A stretch of DNA of 62,228 nt, the filler included. It is 12 parts of 12 records of this genome, joined end to end, with 100 filler letters (N's around TTAATTAATTAA, not from the genome) between each part and the next. Parts side by side here need not be neighbours in the genome. Positions count along the whole stretch, not along the records: positions 49,658 to 54,267 come from SRR15195285_3779; 11 more parts are not named here. One strand, given 5' to 3'. Below the pieces are notes generated by a model. That model searched no databases, was not told the DNA's origin, and saw only the letters and a program-made list of their open reading frames with translations. The first letter of the stretch is position 1; every line of letters begins with the position of its first letter. Below, piece by piece: positions 11,790-57,500 of this stretch. The translations under genes and the position numbers were made by a program.

Positions 11790-11889
11790 NNNNNNNNNNN
11801 NNNNNNNNNNNNNNNNNNNNNNNNNNNNNNNNNTTAATTAATTAANNNNNNNNNNNNNNNNNNNNNNNNNNNNNNNNNNNNNNNNNNNN
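11790..11889. other. Artificial contig linker (N44-TTAATTAATTAA-N44)
   Basis: Six-frame-stop linker inside an N run. Confidence 0.98.
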
Positions 11890-45039: not shown

Positions 45040-45139
45040 NNNNNNNNNNNNNNNNNNNNNNNNNNNNNNNNNNNNNNNNNNNNTTAATTAATTAANNNNN
45101 NNNNNNNNNNNNNNNNNNNNNNNNNNNNNNNNNNNNNNN
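45040..45139. other. Artificial contig linker
   Basis: N44-TTAATTAATTAA-N44. Confidence 0.98.
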
Positions 45140-48100
45140 TGGCTCTGGCTCTGGCTCTGGCTCTGGCGTGGACTCTGATTCTGGTGCTGGTTCTGGGATA
45201 GAGTCGATGGTTGAACGATGATCAAAGGCGGCATTCAGCGCTCGCATGTTTTTGGTGCTGACAACCAGCGTCCTGCCAGCAACACGCTGCCGAGTGCACG
45301 AGACACACCCACAACATGCTCCATCCGAGGGCAGTATAATCGGCTCGCTGTTGTCCAGTGCTCCAAACGGCTTGTGCAGCTGTGGAAACATGTTCTCCAG
45401 CACCATGTCAATCACCAAGTCAATATTCAATTCGTACTGTAGTGACCCTAGAAGAAAGCACCAAGGCTGTTTGTACTTATTAACGCACTCATCTATCACG
45501 TATCGCTTTGGCGCTGGTGCCTGCACACGCACATGTGCATCGAGCTGCTCAAGCATCTGCTTGATCAGCGTCTCGTAGTTAGACCTGACGTCACCTGCCA
45601 TACCGCGCCCTGCCTCCTTGTCGTGTCCCACAAGGTTCCACAACTGCTCACAAATTGCACTGCGTGCTTTCAGGCGTCGGACGTCAGCTGCAGCTGCAGC
45701 CGTGCAGGCTTCCGCATGGTCTGCCTTGCACTGAAGCTGATCCACCTTGGTGGCTATGCTGGCAAAAGCCCCCGCTCCATTTTGCGCCTCTGACTTTGTA
45801 TCTCTGGTTTCTGTCGTACCGGACAAATCTGCTCTAGCCACCGCCTCTACTGCTGCGGTGCCCTCAAGACGTGGCGGCGGCATCGAATCCTGCTCTGCAT
45901 GAACAATTTCTTGTGCATCCTGGAGCATTGATGCCGCCATTTTGAATGATGCCTGCGCAGCCTGAGATTGTTGTCGCAATTGTTCGTACGCTTCGTCGAG
46001 CTTGGGAAGTCTAATGCTCAGGGCAGTGTGCGTCTGTTTGAGCCGGAACTGCAGCATGTCCACAACAGCAATTACCGATCGAGCTGTTTTGCCGAACGAT
46101 GCATTCTGTGGAAATCCAGTGGAAGCAGTACTATCCACACGAGTTTGAATTTCTAGTAGAAGACTTGTGACTACTTCTGCTGCAAAGTGAAGCATCGCTG
46201 TTACGTAGTCATCGTGCACCGGATCAAGCGCCTTCTGCTCTGAAGCTTCGTTCCCGTTACCCAATGTATCGTCATTGCTGATACCTAGCCCAGCCAGCAA
46301 CCGAAACACATGGGCTTTTCGATCGGCACCTCCGTAGTCAGCTAGGCCCACTGCAAACGCGGCTGCCGATTGCAACGCAATTGTCTCGACACCGAACATG
46401 CGCCTGAAGAACGCGGTTGTCAGATAGTGGTCCATGGGGTGGCCCCAATGCCCTGTTGGCCACTCTGACACTGAAACCGAAGATTCTGCAGAGATATTCT
46501 CGACGAGTATTTGTTCTCCAGTCGTTGCAGGCCGCTTCGCATCAGCATCCTCATTTACGCGCACGAACAGCGAGGCTTTCATGTTAGCGATGTAGATGGA
46601 ATTGATTGTTTTGTGGACCTCAGTCAGCCTCATCGGCGCCGAGACAGCTGATTCCCTAACAATCCTCTGTTGGACTGAAACCCTGTCCCAGTTCGCTAGA
46701 GCAGGCGACCACTCGTCCTCGACCTTACCAGATCCGCGTAATGTGGGCATCAGCGCTTGTAGGAAAAGGTCTGCAACAACATACAGTGACACAGCACCAG
46801 TCCTAAATCTGCATAGATGTGTAACGCACGCGCAGATCTTGTTCACAATCCTCTGCGGCGATTGTAAAGCCATACGTAGGGATTTGGTCGCCTCGATCAT
46901 CTCGGGTGCGTCCCGCTGCATCACGAGCACGCGCTTCGGTTCGGTTACTGCTGTCAGAATTCTGTCAATTGCCAGGCGGACGGAGCGAGTGGCAATCAGC
47001 TCGCCGATGTGGTCCTTGTCCTTCGTGATTAAGACACGCATCGCACCAGTACTTGCCTCGGCCTTCTTTCGACTAAACTTGCGAACGGACAGCCGACTGT
47101 TGCCGATCGATATCCCCGGATCTTCATTGTCGGCAGCAAGTGCCTTCGTGGCCCCGCTGACATCTTGCATTGTTACGAGTGCCCACGAACCTTTAGAGGT
47201 GTTTCTAGGTCGGCAAAAGACATTGGCTACGACTCCAAATTCAGAAAAAAGCTGCTCAAGCTCCTTCTCGTTTGTAAAGTCTTTCTCCAAGCCTTTAACG
47301 TGCAACTTTGTTTTATCCAGTGGGCTAGTGCTGCTGTTGTCGCTGCCACTCTCGTTCTTGCTTAGTTCCGCCTTCAGATTCTGACCAGTTCCTTTGGCTT
47401 TGACCGAGCCTGAGCGCAGCGTCTGCACAGCTTCCATCAGAGCTAGCACACAGTCTAGACCTAGCTCACGAACGGCACTGTTTGAGGTGATGGTGAGGTC
47501 CTCGTCATCACCAGACCATCCCATGGCACTCAGACGACCAAACACGTACGCAGCCCTATGCTGTAAAGAATGGACCTGTAGGCCGCTGCGGAAAGACGCC
47601 AGCAGGGCACGACAACGCCCACGCACCCTTCCAGCCCAGCTCCCGAAATAATCTTCAACATGAGCTATTATATCAGAACGTTCAGCATCCATAGCTCCCT
47701 CCTTTCTGGCATCTGGAAGCGGTGTTATGCGTCTGAGCCGATGCTTTCGTCCAGTTCCTCCGTTCGCGACCATTACAGATCTGTTCTTTGCCAAATAAAG
47801 ATAGAATTGCGACACATGCATGCAGACTTGTACCACGCTCATTGGTCCAAGCTGCACCTGCGGCTCCTTCACCAGCCTGCTCATGTGTATCGATTCTTCT
47901 TTCGAGCCCAGCGACGGAACTCCCAGCCCCTCGACATAGAGCACTGGGCAGACGGAGCTCAACAGAAAGGCAAGCGTTGCATCGAGAGCCACCATAGGGC
48001 CCCCTGTTCGGTTGCCTCGGCTACGTGCCGCGAGTTTGATTCCCTTCTCTCGCTTTAACTTTGCTTCCGCTGCTTCCTGCTTGAGTTTGAGCGCAGCCGC

Positions 48101-49552
48101 CTCACCCCAGCTTGCGTTTGCTACAGCCTGACCCTTCAGCGCCATAATTTCGCCGAGATCTTTTTCAGCACGCTGCAGCGGATCCAACAAGCCAACGGCA
48201 GACGCAATGAGCTGCTGCACAGTTTCAACACCCTTTAGCCAGCCCTGTGCTTGAAGCCGCTCCATAAGCTCGAGGCAAGAATAATCCTGTGCCTGAGATC
48301 CTTGGGAACCACGTGCCTGCAGCTGGCTAACACATGTCCGACAAGCGCCTGACACGCAATCTGCCACATCACGGAGTGGGAGCGGCTTGTCGTGCAGCTG
48401 CACTCCAGAGCCTTTCCTGCAGACGCTGACTAGCACCGCCACAGCAAGCTCAGCTCCTAGGGCGCGCTGAATCTCCTCTCCCGTTGTTGCCGAGTCACAT
48501 ACCAGCTGTCGAAACAGCAACAGCCGCTGATCGGCCACGACCATGGCTTCGATTTCCGGCTCTGCTATTTCATCTACCGAATTCCCATGACCAAGCAGGG
48601 CTCGAACCCTCTCTACCACACCGTCGCCTTTTCCAAATCTCCGCGGGCCGAAAAACTCGTCGCGGCACCATGCTCCGAACGGCTGTGGAACCTTGCTGAT
48701 GGAGATCAGCTGATTGCCGGGCCAGTCCGCGGCTGCCTTGCCGCGGTAGATTGCAGCAACCTGACGCCGAAGCGTTGCTATCGACACCAGCGGAGCTCCG
48801 GCGGGTGACGGCAACGGTGGCGGTGGCTGCTGAAGCCAGCGATACTGGCTAGGCGCTGGCGCCGAATTTGGGCGTGCAGCGGAACGACCGGCAGCCGGCG
48901 GCCGGCAGGAGCCTGAGGCAGCCTGCTGATGCACCAGCCGGCCGAACGCTGCCGGCGAACCCGGCACGACGGCATCAGCCGAGGCCCGTTCGCGCTGCTG
49001 GCGCGGCGTCTGCGTAACAATACGCCCTGCAACGCTGCGCCCCCGACCAGGCACACTGCGTCGCTGCTGCTGCCGCAGTGTGCGCGCAGTACGAGGTTCA
49101 GACCGAGCCCAAGCAGTGCCCGAGGGTGGAGTGGCAACCCGTGGTGCGTTTTCGCCGATCCTCGTGTCTTCGCGCAGCAGCGCAGCCTTCAGCCGCGCCA
49201 CCTTTCGCTGCACGCCAGCCTCAGGGTCCACCCGACTTCGCACCGCATCCGACACAAAGAACTCGTCCTGCTCCCGCACCGCAGGCCGCTGCTGCAGCTC
49301 TTTGATCTCCTGCTCGATCGCTCGCCGAACCTCCCTGTCCTCCCGGCCATCGCCACGCGGCCGCGCGCCAGCCGGCATCGCCAGCCGGCACATCGCCGCG
49401 CCCACAGCCCCAGCGGAGCACGGCCGCCCGTCCCGCGCCATGCGAGAGTCCGGCGCCCGTATCGCCGAGTGCATCGCGTGCCGCTGCCCTCCGTCCCTCT
49501 TGCTCTTCCTGCCGACCGCGGTGAGCTCAGTCAATTGTATGTGTACGCTCAA
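45140..49552 (-). CDS. Large (~1,450 aa) unknown protein with a central RRM, coiled coils and a C-terminal (EP)n repeat; start uncertain, 3' end truncated
   Basis: Single long ORF; KLHVKGL...ELEQLFSEFGVV...SWALVTM...LSVRKF (RRM) at about 47075-47310. Confidence 0.75.
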
Positions 49553-49557
49553 AACAG

Positions 49558-49657
49558 NNNNNNNNNNNNNNNNNNNNNNNNNNNNNNNNNNNNNNNNNNN
49601 NTTAATTAATTAANNNNNNNNNNNNNNNNNNNNNNNNNNNNNNNNNNNNNNNNNNNN
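49558..49657. other. Artificial contig linker
   Basis: N44-TTAATTAATTAA-N44. Confidence 0.98.
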
Positions 49658-50933
49658 GGTCAAGTGCAGAGGCGAACTGAACGTGATTCTTGTTGGCGAC
49701 CCTGGTACGGCCAAGTCGCAGCTGCTCAACTACGTGCACAAAATTGCTCCGCGCGGTATCTACACGTCAGGCCAGGGAAGCTCGGCGGTGGGTCTGACCG
49801 CATACGTGACACGGGATCCAGACACCGGCGAGATGGTGCTTGAGTCAGGTGCTCTAGTGCTGTCCGATCGCGGAATTTGCTGCATCGACGAATTTGACAA
49901 AATGAGCGATATTACCCGCGCAGTCCTGCACGAAGCGATGGAGCAGCAGACGGTCTCAGTCGCGAAGGCGGGCATCATTTGCAGCCTGAACGCGCGTACG
50001 TCCATCCTCGCGGCGGCGAATCCAATCGAGTCGCGATACAATCCACGCAAAAGCGTCGTTGAGAACATCAACCTCCCGCCGACGTTGCTCAGTCGCTTCG
50101 ACCTCATCTACCTTGTGCTGGACAAGGCTGATGAGACGTCCGATTCGCGGCTTGCCTCGCATCTTGTTTCGCTGTACTTCAAAGAGGTCTCGCCGAAGAT
50201 GAAGGGACAGTTCTCCGTAAAGCAGCTGACCAAGTACGTGTCGTACGCCCGTCGCAACTGCCACCCGCACATGACCGACGGCGCAAAGCAGCGATTGATC
50301 GAACACTATGTCGAAATGCGGAAGGCCGGGATGCGCAACAAGACAATCACGTCCACTCCACGCCAGCTCGAGTCGCTCATACGGCTTGCAGAGTCCAACT
50401 CCCGCATGCGGCTTGGCGAGGAGGTCACAGAGGACGATGTTGCTGAAGCAGTGCGGCTTATGACTGCGGCGACGCTGACGGCAGCGACTAACCCGGAGAC
50501 TGGCGAGATCGATATGGATCTAATCACTACTGGCCGTAGTGCGACTGACCGAGAAAGGGTTGAGCAGATATCGCAGGTGCGCCTCGTCAACCGCGCGCTA
50601 TTATGCAACTGAACACCTTGCCTTGTTCTCGTGTGGTTGCGTCACCTGCTCAGGGTGCATCGTCGCGCTTCTCAAGTGGCTGACTGTCGACTGAATGTTC
50701 CTGCTGCGTGTGTTTCGCTGCTGCGGCAACTGCTCACGCAGGAGTTGATGCCTATCATCGACGAGCTGCGGGCTGAGGGATTCAACGCACGAGATCTAGC
50801 AGTTGAATTGAGGGAGCGCTCGCGTAACCAGGACATCACAACGGAGGACGTGCGCGCTGCGCTTGACATGTTGGTAAATGAGGGTATGATCAGAGAGGGT
50901 AGCAATGGCTCCTACCGGAAAATGAGGCGGTAA
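49658..50933 (+). CDS. MCM4: DNA replication licensing factor MCM4, 3' part (AAA+ domain and winged helix)
   Basis: GDPGTAKSQLL; SSAVGLTAYVTRDP; LESGALVLSDRGICCIDEFDKM; LPPTLLSRFDLIYL; TPRQLESLIRL; G.IDMDLITTG. Intron 50577-50741. Confidence 0.93.
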
Positions 50934-51362
50934 GGCCACGCCAGTGATCTTCAGTGGCCGATATAGGGTGCAGCATCACACCATTCACGTAGCGTCGAAC
51001 CGGCGAGACGACAAGTACCTCGTCGAAGGTCGTGCGGACGAGTGGCTGGGTGCTGGCGGTGTTTTCATGGCACGAGCAGTGCATAAGCCGGTAGTCAGGA
51101 GACAGAAACAGGAGAGGCACAATGCTAGACGACGGGCTAGTGAGCAGGTGCTTGGCTTGTGGAACGTTCTCCGGCGGCGGCAGCGGCGGCGCTGGAGGAG
51201 TCAGTGCCAGCTGGTGCAGGATGGGGACAGAGGAAATGCACCGCTGATGGCGCAAACGTATCAGCATGCTATGGAGTTCGACTGAGACATTTTCTTTCAA
51301 TTCCACACACTATCGCTAAGGCGCCAATAGACCTTCGGCATTCCACGACAGCCGTCGAAACT

Positions 51363-54033
51363 CTACGGTGCGCCTGTTCCCGCTGCAGCTGCAGCCACCG
51401 CCGCCTTTTTCTCTGCCATCTTCTTTTCGTAGCGCGCGATCATCTTCGCAGGAAGCGATGTGCTCTCGACCCAGGTATCGGCATCCTTCTCGCAGCCATG
51501 CCACCTCACCTTGTACTCCATCACGCCGTCTGCTCGCCTCCTGGCCTTGACGAGACCCCGGGCCTCCTGCCCTTGCGGACCTGCAACCGGCTTAAGAGCA
51601 ACCTTGTCTTTCCCCTGCGCGGAGCTAGGCGCCTTGGCGACATGATCAGCAGGACTAGGTGCATTCTTTGATTTCTTCGCCGGGTTCGAAGGATTCTTGA
51701 CATTTGCATCTGGCCGGTATTCTTCTTCGTCGTCGTCATCATCGTCGTCCGAATCGTCAACTGACTTGTTTCTGCCTCGTTTAGCGCCACGTCGTTCGTC
51801 TCCGTTGGTCAGCGCAAGTGTAGCTCCTGAACCACCTTCCAGCAGCATCTGTGGCTCGTGCTTGTAGCGTGCTGCCTCGATCCGACCTGCTCCATTCCAT
51901 GCGCGTAGCGCGCTGGGCTGAGATGCACAGACTACCGGAGTAAAATATACACTGCGCAGCATCTGATCCACCATTTGCATGGGTGGTGCATTGCGGCCAT
52001 TTCCACAGATGGCGCAGTGATAAACCAAGCAATGAACGCACCAATGAGTGTAGACTTCCGGTCACCCTCCTCAAAACTGATCCCGTACGACGCACATACC
52101 TGTTCCAGAAAACGAGAACGGACAGTAGGGAAATGTTTAGACCAACTGTGCTTCAATGTTCAACGTTGCTTGTTATCACCACAAGGGAAATTACCGCCGC
52201 AAGTTGCTCTGCCTCCATCGTGTTGAGATTGGTGGGAAGCTCGTGGTCTTCAACGTCTTCAATGCCCGCAGTGTCTGCGGGTGCGGCGTCAGCAGCCATA
52301 GCTTCCTACAGCAGCCACGAACAGCGATCAAATTAAGAGTAGCGCAGTGTACCAGGTTCGCAACTCCTATAATCTCTCGATGACAGTCAGACAGCGAGCC
52401 AAGGAGGCAACGCACGGAGCCGTCAGTGAGCAGTCTTCCTTTGTCTGCCGCACGCAGAGCCTTCGCCAGCAGTGCAATCAGCTTTGGCTTGCTCAGGCCG
52501 GGTCCTGGCGCTGGCTGCACGTTATATAACTCGCACTGCTGCCGGATTGCAGTTTCGCTTAGCATCCACAGCTGCCCGACTTGGCGCCCACCTGCGCACA
52601 ACCAGCCCGGTGAGCAAGAAAATTGCATATGAGCTAGTCAACATGACGGAGTCGGTCGTGTGCAGCCTCTGACCAAATTCCCACTGCGCAACTGCCATCG
52701 CCTCCTCCTGTGCAAGCTGGCCACGCGATGCAGCATTTCGCCTCTGCTCGGCAGCCGCCCGTGCTGCTGTGTGCGCCGCGATTGCCTTTGCGTCGTTGCA
52801 GGATGCCAAGTGCGCGATGGCTCCGTCCGCAGTCTCAGCGTCTGGGCGGCCGCCGCACCGAGGACAGTCATCCAGCAGACCCTTGACCAGACAACGTGCA
52901 GCCGCGCAGATTCAAACAATGCAAAGAATGGTCATAAGAGAGACTCGACAGAGGAAGCGCACCAGGACAAAGAGCTGTTCCTCCTTCGTACGGCTCTCGT
53001 CTGCTTCTCCGCTTGAGCCCGAACGCTTGGCGGAGCGAGCGGCGCGTCGAGCCTGTCCCTCACGCTTCTTCAACCGCGCCTCCTGTTCAGTTTTTACCTC
53101 TTTGCGGACCTCTTCCTCGCGGCGCTCTGAAAGCTTGTGCTGCATAAACCCAAACTCGCGGCCGCATCCAGCATTCCCACATACAATCTTTCGGTGGTAG
53201 TCCTGTGGTGAGTACTCGAAGGGCTTGCGACAGTGCGGGCACTTGTGTTCCGCAGTCATACATCCGAAGGAGCATGCGCACCGGCCACAGACGTACTCTT
53301 TCAAGCCCATCATCAGCAAGTTGTACGCCGCGGTCTCGAGTCCGAGCTCAGCGCGACCCCACTCCATGTGACAACGGGGGCAGTTGACCCGGGTGTTGTG
53401 GCATCCGGCATTGGAGCGCACTACCTGCTTGGCCTTCTGCCGTGGCTTCTTCGCTGAGCTCTCGGATGACGCCTCGGGGTTGCTCAAAGCTTCGTAGGCA
53501 CTCACGAGAGTCTGAAAGGCGCTCTTTGAATCTGCGGAGTTGCCGTTCTTGTCTGGGTGGATCTTCACGGAGAGCTTCAGGTAGGCTTTCCGCATGTCCG
53601 CGGTGCTTGAAGAGCTGGAAATTGCGATGCCACTCAGCGATAGAATGGCGGCATCGTCTTCGCCGGCATCAGCCTTCGTGATGATGCTCTGGATCAGTCT
53701 AGTACCACCGCCGCCGCTGCCGCCGCCGCCGCCACTACTTGCCGCCGCGCCGCCGGATGACGCCTCGGCGCTGGAGGCCTTGAGTGACCGTAGGTGATCC
53801 GCGAGCCGCCGGACCAGCTCGTCCTTGTTGCCGATGCAGTCCAGACCATTTTGGGCGAGGGTCTTGCGCACTTTGCCGACGCCGAGCGCCTTGGCCTGCT
53901 GTGCTTCCGCAAAGTTGAGGCATGAACAGTTGCCTTCCAGGCCACGCCCGCCATGGCATTCCGCACCGCACGCCACGCCCGCCTTGGCGCAGGCGCATCC
54001 CGCGCACTTGCCAGCGTTGCACCCGCACGGCAT
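51363..54033 (-). CDS. Multi-exon protein: Cys cluster, SAP, DnaJ (HPD), CxxC Zn ribbons, helical repeats, acidic/basic linker, chromodomain
   Basis: MPCGCNAGKCAGCAC; VRKTLAQNGLDCIGNKDELVRRL; MRKAYLKLSVKIHPDKN...FQTLVSAYEALS; CPRC, CGRC, CPHC; EYKVRWHGCEKDADTWVE. Five inferred GT-AG introns (first 52882-52962) link the ORF pieces in frame. Confidence 0.8.
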
Positions 54034-54267
54034 CGTGTGTGGCGGAAGCGAGACTTGGACAAGGACAGCCTGTGGGGTATACGGAACAGGCCCGTCCGCT
54101 GTCCCGTGTCCGTCCGGCTCTGTCGGTCCGCCCCGGCGCTGCTGCAACGCCCAGCCCCAGGTGGTCACAGAACAGGCTGATGTGATGCAACAGCAGGCAC
54201 CCTCCTCTTTGATTTCAAACCTCATTCTGATTCTCGAGTGATAGACTGACTTTGGAGACAAGACTGA

Positions 54268-54367
54268 NNNNNNNNNNNNNNNNNNNNNNNNNNNNNNNNN
54301 NNNNNNNNNNNTTAATTAATTAANNNNNNNNNNNNNNNNNNNNNNNNNNNNNNNNNNNNNNNNNNNN
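54268..54367. other. Artificial contig linker
   Basis: N44-TTAATTAATTAA-N44. Confidence 0.98.
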
Positions 54368-54404
54368 TCTCTCTCTCTCTCTGTCTCTCTCTCTGTCCCT
54401 CTCC
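54368..54404. repeat. (CT)n microsatellite at a contig edge
   Basis: tctctctctctctctgtctctctctctgtccctctcc. Confidence 0.85.
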
Positions 54405-54509
54405 ATCTATCGAGTTGCCTGTTCTAATGCGATGGGCGGGGGACATACTGGGTGAGGGCTGAGGGTTTTGGGGTTGTTTGAGGGGTTAGGGAAGGGTAGA
54501 TTTGGGGCC

Positions 54510-57500
54510 ATGATATACCAAGAGGAAGCGCCGGGAGAGAACCCTTTTGTCGGGCGTGAGACCGTGTTCGCTGAGGTCATATGTACTGCGTTGCTTGCTG
54601 GCTTGCGTGTGGATCTTGCGGTTTGCTTGTGTTTTTTCGCAGTCGTTGTACCGCTCGGAGGAGATGACGTATATGCAGATTGTGATCTCGCGAGAGGCTG
54701 CCTATGAGACCATCAAGGCCTTTGGGCGCATGAGCGAGTCCGGCCACCCGGGCCTGCAGTTCACAGACCTCAACGCGGACAAAACCCCGATGCAGAAGCA
54801 CTATGCTCCCTACATCCGGCGTAGCGCCGAGGTGGACCGCATCCTGCGACTGCTGGACGGGATGATCGCGCGCAACCACGTCACGTCCGTGACGGTCGGC
54901 GACGCGTCAGAGGAGTCGCGCGGCATTTTTGACACAGGGGCGCAGGGGCGGGAGCCGATCGAGCAAGAGCTGCTGGCGCTCGAGAAGGAGCTGGTCTCTA
55001 TGGAGAAGAACCTGGACATTGTGGTCCAGCAGCGCATAAAGTTGATCGAGCACAAGGAGGTGCTGAACAAAGTCGGTCCTGTGCTCGGCACCGGCTACGG
55101 TGGGTTCGGCCACGAGACCTACGGCGGCCCCGGGGGTGGCCGCCGCTCGATGGACCAGGGCCTGCTGGGCACGGAGATGGCACAGCTGACTGATCCCGGG
55201 ATGCTGAGCAACGTGGTCGGCACGCTGCCGGCCGAGTCGCAGGCGATGTTCGAGCGCCTGGTCTTCCGCATCGGACGCGGGAACGTCCACCTCCGGTTTA
55301 TCGAGGCGCCGCTCAATTCGGAAGGCCAGGGGGAGAAGGTCGTGTTCTGCGCGCTGTTTCAGGGTGCAGAGATGGGCAGGAAGGTAGAGAAGGTCGCCAA
55401 GAATTTCTCGGCGAACATCTTCACCTTCAACGCGGACACGGTTGATGCGGACATTCGCCAGGTGCAGAACGACCTCGACGACCGCACACGTACGATGCGC
55501 ATGACGCGCGACCACATCCAAGGGCAGCTCGGCGATCTGGCGTCCAAACTGCCGATGTGGAATGAGAAGGCGAAGGCCGAGCTGGCGATCTACGATACTC
55601 TCAATCGCTTCGCACAGCTCGGTGACCTGCACGACAATTTTGACGACGGTGATCAAAGCGGCAATTCGGAGTTCCTGACAGGTGAAGCATGGCTGCCGAA
55701 TATTTCGATTCAAGCTGTTGAGGAGACGCTGAAGATTGGCCAGCAGAAAGCTCGCGCGTCAGCTCCGTCATACTGCCGCACCCTGAAAGCTCGAGGGATG
55801 CCTCCGACATACTTTAAGACCGGCAAGATCACATCACAGTTCCAGGCAGTCGTGGAAGCATACGGTATCGCGAGGTACCGGGAGCACAGCCCAGTGCCAT
55901 ACGTGCATATCATGTTCCCGTTCATGTTTGCGGTCATGTTTGGTGACGTCGGGCACGGAACTCTTGCGTTGCTGTTTGCCCTCTACTTAATCTGGAACGA
56001 GAAAAAGCTGGAAGAAACCGGTGTGAACGAGATGCTCCAGACGGCTTTCGACGGACGCTACGTTGTACTTGTGATGGCTTTGTTCTCCATCTACTGCGGC
56101 GCGCTTTACAACGAAGTGTTCGGGCTGCCTGTTGATTACTTTCATTCCCGGTGGGCCTACCACGGAAACAACGGCACCACCTCCGGTACTGTGGCAGTGT
56201 ACACTGGAGTTGATACCTGTGGCGTAGCGGCGGATCCGGGGGCTTGCAACCTGCCTCCGGCCAACGTGTATCCGTTTGGTATGGACCCTGCCTGGAAGTG
56301 GGCCGCCAACGGCCTGCAGTACACCAACTCGCTCAAGATGAAAATGTCGGTGATCCTCGGCGTCTCGCAGATGGTGTTTGGCATTATACTGAAAGCGACG
56401 AACGATCTTCACTTCAAGGAGCCGCTGGATTTTTATTGCGAGTTCATACCGCAGATGATCTTCATGAACTTTATCTTCGGCTACATGTGCTGGCTCATCA
56501 TTTTTAAGTGGCAGACCTGCTGGCTGCCCGACCAACCTGACAGCTGGCCCGAAACTGACACGGGGACCTTCGACGGAAGGATTACGTTCGAAACGGACCC
56601 TCACCGGTACAAAGAGGCTCTGGACGGTGTTGGCTGGACTCTGCCATCTGATATGAATCCAGAGCCGGAGCTCATCGCGGAGCCGCTGCAGACGGGATTG
56701 CTGCCACCGTGGGGTCAGGATGGCCAAAATGGCAAACTCATCCTGGAGGGCACCAAGCTCTCGTACGTTTGCGAAGGGAAGCTTAATGACCTAGATGCGC
56801 CACCGGATATCAAACAGATCTTGATCAACATGTTCATGGCGTTTGGGACCGACTTTCCACAACAGTTCGTCCTCTACGCCAACATGAACACGTGGCACCA
56901 GCCGATGGTGATCATCGCAGTGCTTTGCATCCCGATTATGCTGCTCCCGAAGCCGCTGATCTTGAACGCAGAGCACAAGAAAACGCAAGGCTACGGCGTG
57001 ATCACGAACGATGACGACATGATTGGCGGCGGCGGAGGCGGCGGCGGCCACGGCCACGGCGACGAGGAATTCGACTTTGGAGAGGTCATGATTCACCAGG
57101 TGATTGAGACAATCGAGTTCGTACTAGGGGCGATCTCGAACACAGCCAGCTACTTGCGGCTGTGGGCCCTGTCGCTCGCGCACGCGCAACTGACGGACGT
57201 TTTCTGGGAGAAGATCATGGTCGAGAATTTCGAGCGTTTCATCGAGTCGTCGCCGATAGTATTTGCGGTTGTGATGTTCTGCGCATTCGCGGTGTGGATG
57301 GCCTGCTCGTTTGGAGTGTTGCTGGTGCGTCGTAGCACCGCTCTCCATACGCCAGCAAGTTCAACTAGCCTTGCCTGGTCCTTCACCAGCTGTCCGCACC
57401 TCATCTCTGTTGCCACCTGATAACTGTCAACTATTCTTGTGCTCTCCTCGCTCTCATCTTTGCCGTCGTCACGATAGGTGATGGAGAGTCTTTCTGCTAC

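Follow-up and report, generated by a model that had tools for sequence, protein, structure and literature searches.

The window analysed here (62,228 nucleotides, made up of contigs joined by 11 N...TTAATTAATTAA...N linkers) carries on its minus strand, at 54033-51363, a single spliced gene of a marine microbial eukaryote. Its product combines a J-domain with SAP-type motifs, zinc-binding candidates and a chromo-like domain, and belongs to a large unnamed family of microbial eukaryotes. On balance, we favor reading this protein as a nuclear class C J-protein, that is, an Hsp70 co-chaperone tethered to DNA or chromatin. The family probably brings Hsp70 to chromatin, and probably does not do so by reading methylated histones.

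Gene structure

Scripted splicing of the window coordinates resolves the locus into six exons and five introns that encode one product of 715 aa.

51363..54033, minus strand: whole coding span, 6 exons, 715 aa, with the stop codon at 51363-51365
52963..54033, minus strand: exon 1 (aa 1-357), an open frame with the Cys cluster, SAP, J-domain, zinc module and charged helix
52882..52962, minus strand: intron 1, 81 nt, GT..AG, with a stop in frame; same junction in P0030, L001 and L003
52674..52881, minus strand: exon 2 (aa 358-426 + 1 nt), CCHC finger and long helix, from the spliced model and homologue alignments
52592..52673, minus strand: intron 2, 82 nt, GT..AG; L003 is in one frame across the junction and L001 also has an intron here
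52416..52591, minus strand: exon 3, carrying the degenerate second SAP unit at about 52455-52562, which aligns with the SAP of P0003 and P0006
52306..52415, minus strand: intron 3, 110 nt, GT..AG; same junction in L001 and L003
52195..52305, minus strand: exon 4, joined to exon 5 in RNA contig X3 record 16
52100..52194, minus strand: intron 4, 95 nt, GT..AG; spliced joint between 52096 and 52192 (cut +3) in X3 record 16
52042..52099, minus strand: exon 5 (19 aa), from the spliced model and the RNA contig
51887..52041, minus strand: intron 5, 155 nt, GT..AG; spliced joint between 51884 and 52040 (cut +2) in X3 record 16
51363..51886, minus strand: exon 6 (aa 542-715), one open frame with the end of the third SAP-like unit, a basic/acidic linker and the chromo-like domain

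The initial annotation had described one spliced gene with these coordinates and this content, and the six-exon frame, homologue colinearity, L001, L003 and the RNA joints all bear it out. Across the five junctions, the spliced product aligns without gaps and colinearly with 12 homologues. All five intron positions are kept in L001 (92% identity). On one contig, L003 (90% identity) has both the chromodomain and the end of exon 1 with the zinc module; its exons 2 and 3 lie in one frame, as do exons 4, 5 and 6 with the chromodomain (this second frame being P0162, 233/233), and it is continuous through junctions 2, 4 and 5. P0091, a single protein, extends from the zinc module as far as its chromo-like end, and P0158, a genomic ORF from a relative, reads through an intron in the position of intron 5. 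Intron 2, if retained, shifts the reading frame.

RNA-seq had been suggested as a check on the five introns, and it delivers this for introns 4 and 5 but not for introns 1-3, which have no spliced contig. Splicing is shown by one RNA contig alone (X3 record 16; depth 2.3, one run). For intron 1, no spliced RNA contig was found, and X2 record 11 spans it unspliced. Contigs from X1 and X2 are unspliced: introns 1, 3 and 4 are covered whole, intron 5 for the most part and intron 2 over its first 20 nt. We read this cover as DNA carry-over or pre-mRNA, and as no argument against the introns. X3 RNA contigs tile 51312-51884 colinearly, that is, exon 6 through the chromodomain. RNA cover was drawn from four runs and part of the gene is without it (53648-54157, for example); none of the four runs yielded a contig from the window's organism that spans the J-domain to the chromodomain.

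The piece of the window at 49658-54266 contains both the J-protein gene and part of MCM4. The 3′ part of MCM4 lies on the plus strand at 49614-50930 and is recognized by domain matches to MCM P-loop, MCM lid and MCM4_WHD. The two genes are convergent on the same contig, as first reported, with 430 nt between their stop codons.

Domains of the protein

Pfam was run on five of the six exon translations, exon 5 (19 aa) being left out as too short. The features of the product are as follows.

53920..54027, minus strand: N-terminal Cys cluster (aa 3-38; 9 Cys + 1 His), from the sequence
53788..53868, minus strand: SAP motif 1 (aa 56-82), Pfam SAP 22.7 bits, cut-off 23.9
53470..53622, minus strand: J-domain (aa 138-188 matched), Pfam DnaJ 46.7 bits, cut-off 27.8
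53143..53418, minus strand: zinc module specific to the family (aa 206-297), its ligand candidates kept across the 69 rows of alignment A4
52798..52866, minus strand: CCHC finger (C363, C366, H381, C385), ligands invariant in 62 rows
51870..52218, minus strand: third SAP-like unit, cut by introns 4 and 5, a block conserved across the family
51720..51758, minus strand: acidic tract (D/E run), from the sequence
51405..51563, minus strand: chromo-like domain, with the Pfam Chromo match at 51420-51548 (exon-6 aa 113-155)

The J-domain is intact, in agreement with the earlier call. Its HPD loop (H159-P160-D161, encoded by CAC CCA GAC at 53551-53559 on the minus strand) is complete, its DnaJ score exceeds the Pfam cut-off, and it aligns to the J-domain of DNAJB12 (E 1.5e-7). 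Neither DnaJ_C nor DnaJ CXXCXGXG matched at E<=1 in the exon translations submitted to Pfam. With the HPD J-domain present and the class A/B parts absent, the protein is assigned by sequence to class C.

Three SAP units had been annotated, and they fare differently. SAP motif 1 falls 1.2 bits below the Pfam cut-off, and the SAP of P0030 is also just under it (23.8 bits vs cut-off 23.9). Of 50 long family members, 30 have a SAP match at E<=0.001. In the window, neither of the other two units matches a Pfam family at E<=1. The second unit nevertheless aligns to true SAPs: it shares alignment columns with the SAP of P0003 (31.1 bits, aa 454-481) and with the better of two stretches in P0006 (aa 452-482), a protein that scores 51.4 bits over its full length. 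The third unit, searched as a profile against PDB, returned no SAP structure, the best match being RESC1 (E 0.037).

At the N-terminus, the Cys cluster is kept in P0001-P0004 and P0010, while P0006, P0007, P0016 and P0021 carry an extra SAP instead; an M-P-C-x-C start is common to exon 1 and the homologues P0001-P0003. The cluster had been called CXC/tesmin-like, a label that finds no support. The TCR profile is unmatched, aa 1-43 match no Pfam family and no PDB sequence at E<=10, and we take the Cys spacing to be unlike the tesmin/TSO1 CXC (TCR) consensus.

The zinc module has 12 candidate ligands (C211, C218, C221, C249, C252, C258, H263, C265, C268, H280, C285 and C290), invariant or nearly so across the 69 rows of alignment A4, and likely holds three zincs. 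Its AF2 model has a pLDDT of 90.7. Nothing rises above the Pfam cut-off for this module, and the best structural matches, at E 0.2 (Foldseek) and Z 3.7 (VIA-align), are too weak for us to assign a fold. The CCHC finger that follows has C6, P7, C9, G10, H24, L25 and C28 invariant in 62 rows, and its AF2 model (pLDDT 89.4) is a knuckle plus helix.

An unnamed family and its chromodomain sub-clade

At a threshold of E<=1e-30, 259 cluster representatives share the core of this protein. As a taxonomic lead, the nearest Atlas cluster to exon 1 (score 0.88) has Haptophyta as its commonest group; a V-ATPase query added nothing to this. Source names were looked up for five homologue clusters, and those seen were all ‘hypothetical protein’. 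The family order begins with a Cys cluster or extra SAP, followed by SAP, J-domain and three-zinc module. A long helix rich in charge comes next, then the CCHC finger, another SAP, the SAP-like unit and an acidic/basic tail; acidic tails are frequent among family members. One member, P0042, is a fusion with an Exo_endo_phos nuclease/phosphatase domain (64.6 bits).

In the sub-clade of the window protein, the tail terminates in a chromo-like domain. The C-terminal chromodomain of the initial annotation is recovered by Pfam at 51420-51548, where Chromo scores 27.6 bits (cut-off 25.1) over profile positions 8-53 of 53. Pfam finds DnaJ in 48 of 50 long family members and Chromo in none of the 50. 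The chromodomain occurs only in the sub-clade, in 11 of 12 exon-6 relatives and in P0091; it is a sub-clade addition and not a feature of the whole family. The chromo-like end of P0091 itself matches no Pfam family at E<=1; with the last 80 aa as query against 154 family proteins, phmmer gave no match at E<=10 and BLASTP aligned the P0091 end. Searches with exon 6 returned a single, irrelevant match among longer proteins (E 9.4e-3), and 591 pattern matches but no relatives among metagenome contigs. The annotation's union of SAP and chromo-type modules with a J-domain in one polypeptide is seen in the window and in relatives alike.

Within exon 6, identity is higher in the chromo block than in the linker for both P0161 (44/56 vs 34/65) and P0164 (32/56 vs 27/64). 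The chromo region has five invariant basic residues (R109, R115, K125, R127 and K147 in exon-6 numbering).

Proposed function and alternatives

SAP is chiefly a DNA-binding motif. In the mechanism that we propose, anchorage to DNA or chromatin would come from the SAP motifs, with possible help from the zinc modules, and the HPD loop of the J-domain would trigger ATP hydrolysis by Hsp70. Hsp70 would then clamp a client beside the tether, so that DNA-bound protein assemblies could be remodeled or dismantled. The sequence analysis shows how the gene is built, which domains it encodes, the family to which it belongs and the state of the cage; the nuclear location, the binding of DNA, the recruitment of Hsp70 and the nature of the client are what we infer here.

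A rather unlikely alternative, and still the strongest competitor, is a co-chaperone for DNA damage and protein removal, in which the CCHC finger binds ubiquitin, SUMO is bound by the hydrophobic-acidic tails found in many members, and these parts along with SAP direct Hsp70 to ubiquitin- or SUMO-marked proteins stuck on DNA. The finger's invariant ligands fit the C-x2-C ... H-x3-C pattern that is also the ligand pattern of UBZ4 (RAD18-type) fingers, and its model has the knuckle-plus-helix shape described above. Zinc fingers from FAAP20 (titled UBZ with diubiquitin), NDP52 and NEMO make up three of its eight Foldseek rows, and the latter two bind ubiquitin. However, all eight rows lie at E 3.5-9.5, far from significant (3.5-7 for these three), a further comparison with VIA-align found nothing at Z>=2, and phmmer against PDB returned chance-level rows only, with UBZ absent. 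UBZ4 fingers also have an Asp two places after the His, whereas the family varies at the second residue past the finger His. For the SUMO part, the tails of members such as P0001, P0004, P0013 and P0027 have acidic-flanked hydrophobic runs, which presumably resemble SIMs, but a clear hydrophobic SIM core is absent from the tail of the window protein. The nuclease/phosphatase fusion of P0042 points the same way as this alternative, but is possibly a fused gene model. RAD18 and SLX4 offer a precedent, being built of SAP and UBZ (and SIM) in the excerpts available of PMC3273806 and PMC8599992. This alternative is more specific than a DNA-tethered co-chaperone, and compatible with it.

A broader synthesis would see a widespread protist family of DNA-tethered J-proteins in which a three-zinc domain of a new kind and a finger of ubiquitin type are combined, and which brings Hsp70 to proteins that are stuck or marked on DNA, serving genome maintenance as its chaperone arm, with the cage-less chromodomain of the marine clade as a nucleosome or nucleic-acid anchor. 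We regard it as speculative, and as a little more doubtful than the damage and removal role taken by itself.

Less probable again is the role first proposed for the chromodomain, that it reads methylated histone lysine in the style of HP1 or Polycomb and so brings Hsp70 to marked chromatin. The Chromo score exceeds the Pfam cut-off, and among PDB sequences the H3K9me readers MPP8, CBX and CDY match best (MPP8 at E 8.4e-4, CBX8 at E 2.1e-3). In MPP8, the methyl-lysine cage consists of F59, W80 and Y83, according to the available text of PMC3192050. The annotation had asked for this cage to be checked, and one of three aromatics is kept, W670. Alignment with MPP8 and CBX8 places E649 or Q648 at the first position and a Cys, C673, at the cage Tyr position; no aromatic occurs in the 28 residues preceding the conserved first-strand Tyr, and the Pfam match lacks profile positions 1-7, the site of the first cage residue. 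This state is conserved in the clade. Among 14 rows, the Trp column holds W in 12 and F in 2, which favors a reader, but the third position is C in 12 rows, with one L and one A. The chromodomains of Mi-2 and MOF, which have no cage, bind nucleic acid and leave methylated histone unbound, as stated in the part of PMC6222470 available. Because only one of three cage positions is kept, and this state is conserved, recruitment of Hsp70 to DNA or chromatin is plausible while methyl-lysine reading is unsupported. For the same reason, the chromo-like domain is most likely a further anchor, to nucleic acid, a nucleosome surface or a partner protein, and not an HP1-type reader. W670 and neighboring acidic residues could form a partial pocket for methyl-lysine or methyl-arginine.

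Slightly more improbable than methyl-lysine reading is an RNA-directed nuclear co-chaperone, in which RNA or RNP would be the ligand of SAP, the zinc module and the chromo-like domain, with Hsp70 acting on RNP assembly. RNA binding is known for several chromodomains, going by the same excerpt (PMC6222470). When the zinc module is compared by VIA-align, eight of the nine top rows belong to RIG-I-like helicases, by their RNA-binding C-terminal domains (Z 2.8-3.7), and the top PDB match of the third unit, given above, is an RNA-editing complex protein. All of these matches are under the usual thresholds, however (the tool cautions that below Z 8 an arrangement may be a common one), and the usual ligand of SAP is DNA.

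Finally, a gene-model artefact that joins two adjacent genes, one with the J-domain exons and the other with the chromodomain exon, is very improbable: the missing own-organism RNA contig, the 0 of 50 long family members with Pfam Chromo, most of which end without a chromodomain, and P0163, in which the same chromodomain follows an unrelated 44-residue N-terminus (on a 525-nt contig), are outweighed by an exon 6 that is one frame from the conserved end of the third unit to the chromodomain, by the splicing of exons 4-5-6 together in X3 record 16, by the union of family core and chromodomain in P0161, P0162, P0164, P0165, P0167 and P0091 and on the single contig of L003, and by the absence from the window of the coding pattern of P0163's unrelated part (a degenerate pattern for 7 residues, no match).

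Comparison with known systems

J-proteins set the site at which Hsp70 acts. To our knowledge, few of them are known on chromatin, namely ZRF1, DNAJC9 and, very recently, the plant PICKLE-associated JDPs. ZRF1 carries SANT.

The Arabidopsis proteins JDP1-4 / DILL1-3, of the PICKLE CHD3 complex, likewise join a J-domain and a histone or chromatin module in one polypeptide. In the portions available of the two reports (bioRxiv 10.64898/2026.09.14.751395; 10.64898/2026.09.10.750567), they bring HSP70 to the chromatin machine and are class-A-like, with a C-terminal DUF3444/BAH-like domain that reads unmethylated H3K4. As described there, they are without SAP, this zinc module or a chromodomain, unlike the window protein, in which Pfam finds no DUF3444 at E<=1. 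ZRF1 / DNAJC2 (MPP11), which binds mono-ubiquitinated H2A, and DNAJC9 / Djc9 / Dnj4, which bind H3-H4, are J-proteins that work on chromatin, as proposed for the window protein (excerpts of PMC8393682, PMC11775587, PMC8689522 and PMC11148058). Their targeting modules, so far as those excerpts describe them, are a ubiquitin-binding domain (ZRF1) and a histone-binding surface (DNAJC9), and such Pfam families are unmatched in the window protein. The initial annotation found the domain combination unfamiliar, and it does differ from plant JDP/DILL, ZRF1/DNAJC2 and DNAJC9 as these are described in the excerpts. No J-domain-chromodomain or J-domain-SAP fusion is among the literature matches listed, which is weak evidence of absence from print.

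Individual modules have parallels elsewhere. RAD18 and SLX4 pair SAP with a C-x2-C...H-x3-C finger, much as the window protein has a SAP-type motif and its CCHC finger, SLX4 also having SIMs in the text available (PMC3273806; PMC8599992), but they are without a J-domain, and the window protein is without RING, BTB or nuclease-binding parts. The chromo-like domain belongs to the same Pfam Chromo family as those of HP1, Polycomb and MPP8, but with one of their three cage aromatics. With Mi-2 and MOF it shares a chromo fold without the cage (PMC6222470, as excerpted), and it has many conserved basic residues; those chromodomains sit in remodelers and acetyltransferases, whereas this one sits in a J-protein, and the likeness seen is the missing cage, not a specific sequence relation. 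The sub-clade is a natural example of a chromodomain still conserved after loss of its methyl-lysine cage.

The family would represent a different route of Hsp70 tethering to DNA or chromatin, through several SAP units, a CCHC finger and a clade-specific chromodomain, in a set that includes two zinc modules unmatched in Pfam and PDB, and it gives a defined domain set for testing. Set beside the systems above, our verdict is that the window protein is a member of the known class of chromatin-directed J-proteins, with different tethering modules.

Gene structure and transcript evidence

Splicing by script of the minus strand of 50800-54600 gave a gene model of six exons for the J-domain protein, with a product of 715 aa.

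Exons of the J-protein gene (spliced gene model)
54033-52963, minus strand, exon 1
52881-52674, minus strand, exon 2
52591-52416, minus strand, exon 3
52305-52195, minus strand, exon 4
52099-52042, minus strand, exon 5
51886-51363, minus strand, exon 6

The model reproduces the gene coordinates and the five introns of the initial annotation, with introns of 81, 82, 110, 95 and 155 nt that are bounded by GT..AG in all five cases, and the HPD codons are found at 53559-53551 where it had placed them. Exon 6 is a single open frame that opens with the last, conserved stretch of the third helical unit of the family and closes with the chromodomain. Four marine RNA runs were compared with the gene region, and splicing is seen in one low-depth RNA contig (X3 record 16), which joins 52232-52192, 52096-52040 and 51884-51733. 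With the tool's cut offsets these joints are exactly introns 4 and 5, whereas the other three introns have no spliced contig; further X3 contigs tile 51312-51884 colinearly. No contig from the window's own organism in these runs spans the J-domain to the chromodomain. Unspliced sequence is seen in contigs of runs X1 and X2, where introns 1, 3 and 4 are covered whole, intron 5 for the most part and intron 2 at its start. Since intron 1 contains a stop in frame and reading through intron 2 would shift the frame, we take these contigs to stem from pre-mRNA or from DNA carry-over.

Relatives give a consistent picture of one gene. In an alignment with 12 homologues, each of the five junctions of the spliced product is free of gaps and insertions. 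A search with exon 1 also brought up two related metagenome contigs. In the first (L001, 92% identity) all five introns sit at the same positions, and the contig stops early in exon 6, where its sequence equals the homologue P0159 (84/85), which itself continues to the chromodomain. The second (L003, 90% identity) covers the last part of exon 1 and shares the positions of introns 1 and 3, with exons 2 and 3 in a single frame and exons 4 to 6, chromodomain included, in another that equals P0162 (233/233). SAP-like units and a chromodomain occur together in P0161, P0162, P0164, P0165 and P0167, and one N-terminally cut protein (P0091, 526 aa) extends from the zinc module as far as a chromo-like C-terminus. 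Exon 6, the X3 splicing, the homologues, both contigs and these relatives bear out the view that these domains belong to a single gene, and the gene is real.

Over its own positions 417-1964, the 90%-identical L003 is without introns 2, 4 and 5 of the window gene and keeps introns 1 and 3, a difference explained either by a recent gain or loss of introns or by L003 being an RNA contig that is partly spliced.

Genomic surroundings

The linker N...TTAATTAATTAA...N is present in 11 exact copies (0 expected), as N-runs with a six-frame stop linker at 11834, 15776, 24664, 29759, 33100, 37917, 41856, 45084, 49602, 54312 and 59110. Separate contigs, each about 3-9 kb long, thus make up the window, and gene order across linkers is no evidence of adjacency.

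Genes near the J-protein gene
49614-50933, plus strand, 3′ part of MCM4 (MCM P-loop 286.8 bits, MCM lid, MCM4_WHD)
54514-57420, plus strand, V-type ATPase subunit a (V_ATPase_I 673 bits)

The J-protein gene shares the piece 49658-54266 with the MCM4 part, which is cut at the contig start; the two lie on opposite strands with stop codons 430 nt apart, convergent as first annotated. The convergent neighbour in L003 is a different one. Adjacency to the V-ATPase gene, which is apparently intron-poor or intronless over about 2.6 kb, is meaningless because a linker lies between. The J-protein gene sequence recurs in marine and seawater metatranscriptomes. On another piece, one minus-strand frame (45092-49609) is open across the whole piece from one linker to the next, a length of 1505 aa; its GC content is high (up to 0.71), and its sole match is an RRM at aa 771-826.

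Domains of the J-protein

The Pfam search covered the translations of exons 1-4 and 6, exon 5 (19 aa) being too short.

Pfam matches of the J-protein
aa 138-188, minus strand, DnaJ (46.7 bits, cut-off 27.8)
aa 56-82, minus strand, SAP (22.7 bits, cut-off 23.9)
exon-6 aa 113-155, nt 51420-51548, minus strand, Chromo (27.6 bits, cut-off 25.1; profile positions 8-53 of 53)

The J-domain and chromodomain of the initial annotation both exceed their cut-offs. Its SAP and two SAP-like units fare less evenly: the first is matched below cut-off, exons 3 and 4 have no Pfam family at E ≤ 1, and the third helical unit, searched as a profile, found no SAP structure. Against the PDB, the best match of exon 1 is the DNAJB12 J-domain (E 1.5e-7), nearly all matches listed falling within the J-domain segment, and exon 6 matches best to chromodomains, those of MPP8 (E 8.4e-4) and CBX8 (E 2.1e-3). 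Class A/B DnaJ parts had no Pfam match in the exon translations, so on sequence the protein is assigned to class C.

A large family with two zinc modules

Searching with exon 1 identified seven full-length relatives (639-711 aa, 40-55% identity). Their profile retrieves 5367 representatives at E ≤ 0.001, mostly via the J-domain, 534 at E ≤ 1e-10 and 259 at E ≤ 1e-30. Among the 50 proteins of at least 520 aa, out of 154 collected, Pfam finds DnaJ in 48, SAP in 30, SAP_new25 in 11, Exo_endo_phos in one (P0042) and Chromo in none. For the five homologue clusters looked up, the source names are all 'hypothetical protein'. The shared plan begins with an N-terminal Cys cluster (replaced by an extra SAP in P0006, P0007, P0016 and P0021), followed by a SAP, the J-domain, a block with 12 conserved Cys/His (C211, C218, C221, C249, C252, C258, H263, C265, C268, H280, C285 and C290 in the window protein), a long charged helix, an invariant C-P-R-C-G ... 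H-L-x-x-C finger, a second SAP with real Pfam matches in P0003 (31.1 bits), P0006 and P0042, a conserved L-P-x-N ... helical unit and an acidic/basic tail. The family that the gene defines is large and uncharacterised, and it has two zinc modules that are unassigned.

The zinc block is modelled with high confidence (pLDDT 90.7) and has no clear fold relative (Foldseek best E 0.2, VIA-align best Z 3.7). Eight of the nine top VIA-align rows are C-terminal domains of RIG-I-like helicases, a possible likeness that we take as a lead only. The CCHC finger is predicted as a knuckle and short helix, then a long helix (pLDDT 89.4); three of eight Foldseek rows are zinc fingers of NDP52, FAAP20 and NEMO (E 3.5-7), the FAAP20 structure being titled as a UBZ domain bound to diubiquitin, and a second structural comparison gave no Z ≥ 2. 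Its ligand pattern fits the UBZ4 type, a putative assignment as to fold and function. The 'tesmin-like' label first given to the N-terminal Cys cluster is unsupported, since neither a Pfam family (E ≤ 10) nor a PDB entry matches the cluster.

P0042 (779 aa) carries a fused Endonuclease/Exonuclease/phosphatase domain (64.6 bits, aa 534-769), which may be real or a merged gene model. The C-termini of P0007 and P0009 consist of a conserved helical module, some 60 residues long, that is distinct from the chromodomain and has no Pfam name at E ≤ 1; C-terminal add-ons seem to be swapped within the family.

A chromodomain without a full aromatic cage

The chromodomain is a sub-clade feature. A near-length search with exon 6 returned 12 proteins, 11 with a precomputed Chromo match; one (P0156) is the window's own ORF, and those other than P0156 and P0163 range from 89% down to 43% identity. 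The chromo block is more conserved than the preceding linker (44/56 versus 34/65 in P0161; 32/56 versus 27/64 in P0164). P0163 (113 aa, on a 525-nt contig) has a chromodomain 100% identical to the window's after 44 unrelated residues, and a 7-residue pattern from this start has no match in the window. A chimeric contig, an alternative first exon and a second copy are possible explanations.

The cage of MPP8 is given as F59, W80 and Y83 (PMC3192050). The MPP8 W/Y strand pairs with the window strand, and therefore W80 stands opposite W670 and Y83 opposite C673; the position 21 residues before W670 is E649. The cage Trp is kept, but these other positions are non-aromatic, and no aromatic residue is present in the 28 residues preceding the conserved Tyr. 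Over the 14 rows of the chromodomain alignment (A6), the Trp column holds W in 12 and F in 2, and the third cage column C in 12, L in 1 and A in 1. In 13 rows the 12 residues that precede R-G-[LI]-V at the start of the domain contain no aromatic; the exception is P0163, in its unrelated part. The chromo-like domain is conserved without a full cage, with five basic residues among the invariant ones. Cage-less chromodomains of Mi-2 and MOF are described as binding nucleic acid and not methyl-histone (PMC6222470).

Proposed role and comparison with known chromatin J-proteins

For a gene with established domains and family, we propose that the SAP and other modules would hold the protein on DNA or chromatin, the J-domain would load Hsp70 onto neighbouring clients, and the chromo-like domain would serve as an additional anchor by means other than methyl-lysine reading. 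Of the initial proposal that Hsp70 is brought to marked chromatin, the putative tether is retained and methyl-lysine reading is unsupported, the full cage being absent. One more specific hypothesis is ubiquitin- or SUMO-guided removal of proteins stuck on DNA, which would be consistent with a make-up like that described for RAD18 and SLX4 (PMC3273806; PMC8599992), the single nuclease-domain fusion in P0042 and acidic-hydrophobic tails in family members.

Among the papers listed in a literature search, none deals with a J-domain-chromodomain or J-domain-SAP protein. According to two 2026 preprints, plant JDP/DILL proteins read unmethylated H3K4 through a DUF3444 / BAH-like domain and act in the PICKLE complex, and ZRF1/DNAJC2 as well as DNAJC9 and its fungal relatives are described as acting on chromatin too. 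The SAP, zinc module and chromodomain of the window protein are absent from the descriptions at hand of JDP/DILL, ZRF1/DNAJC2 and DNAJC9. Chromatin-directed J-proteins are already known as a kind, and the window gene adds to them a different domain make-up.
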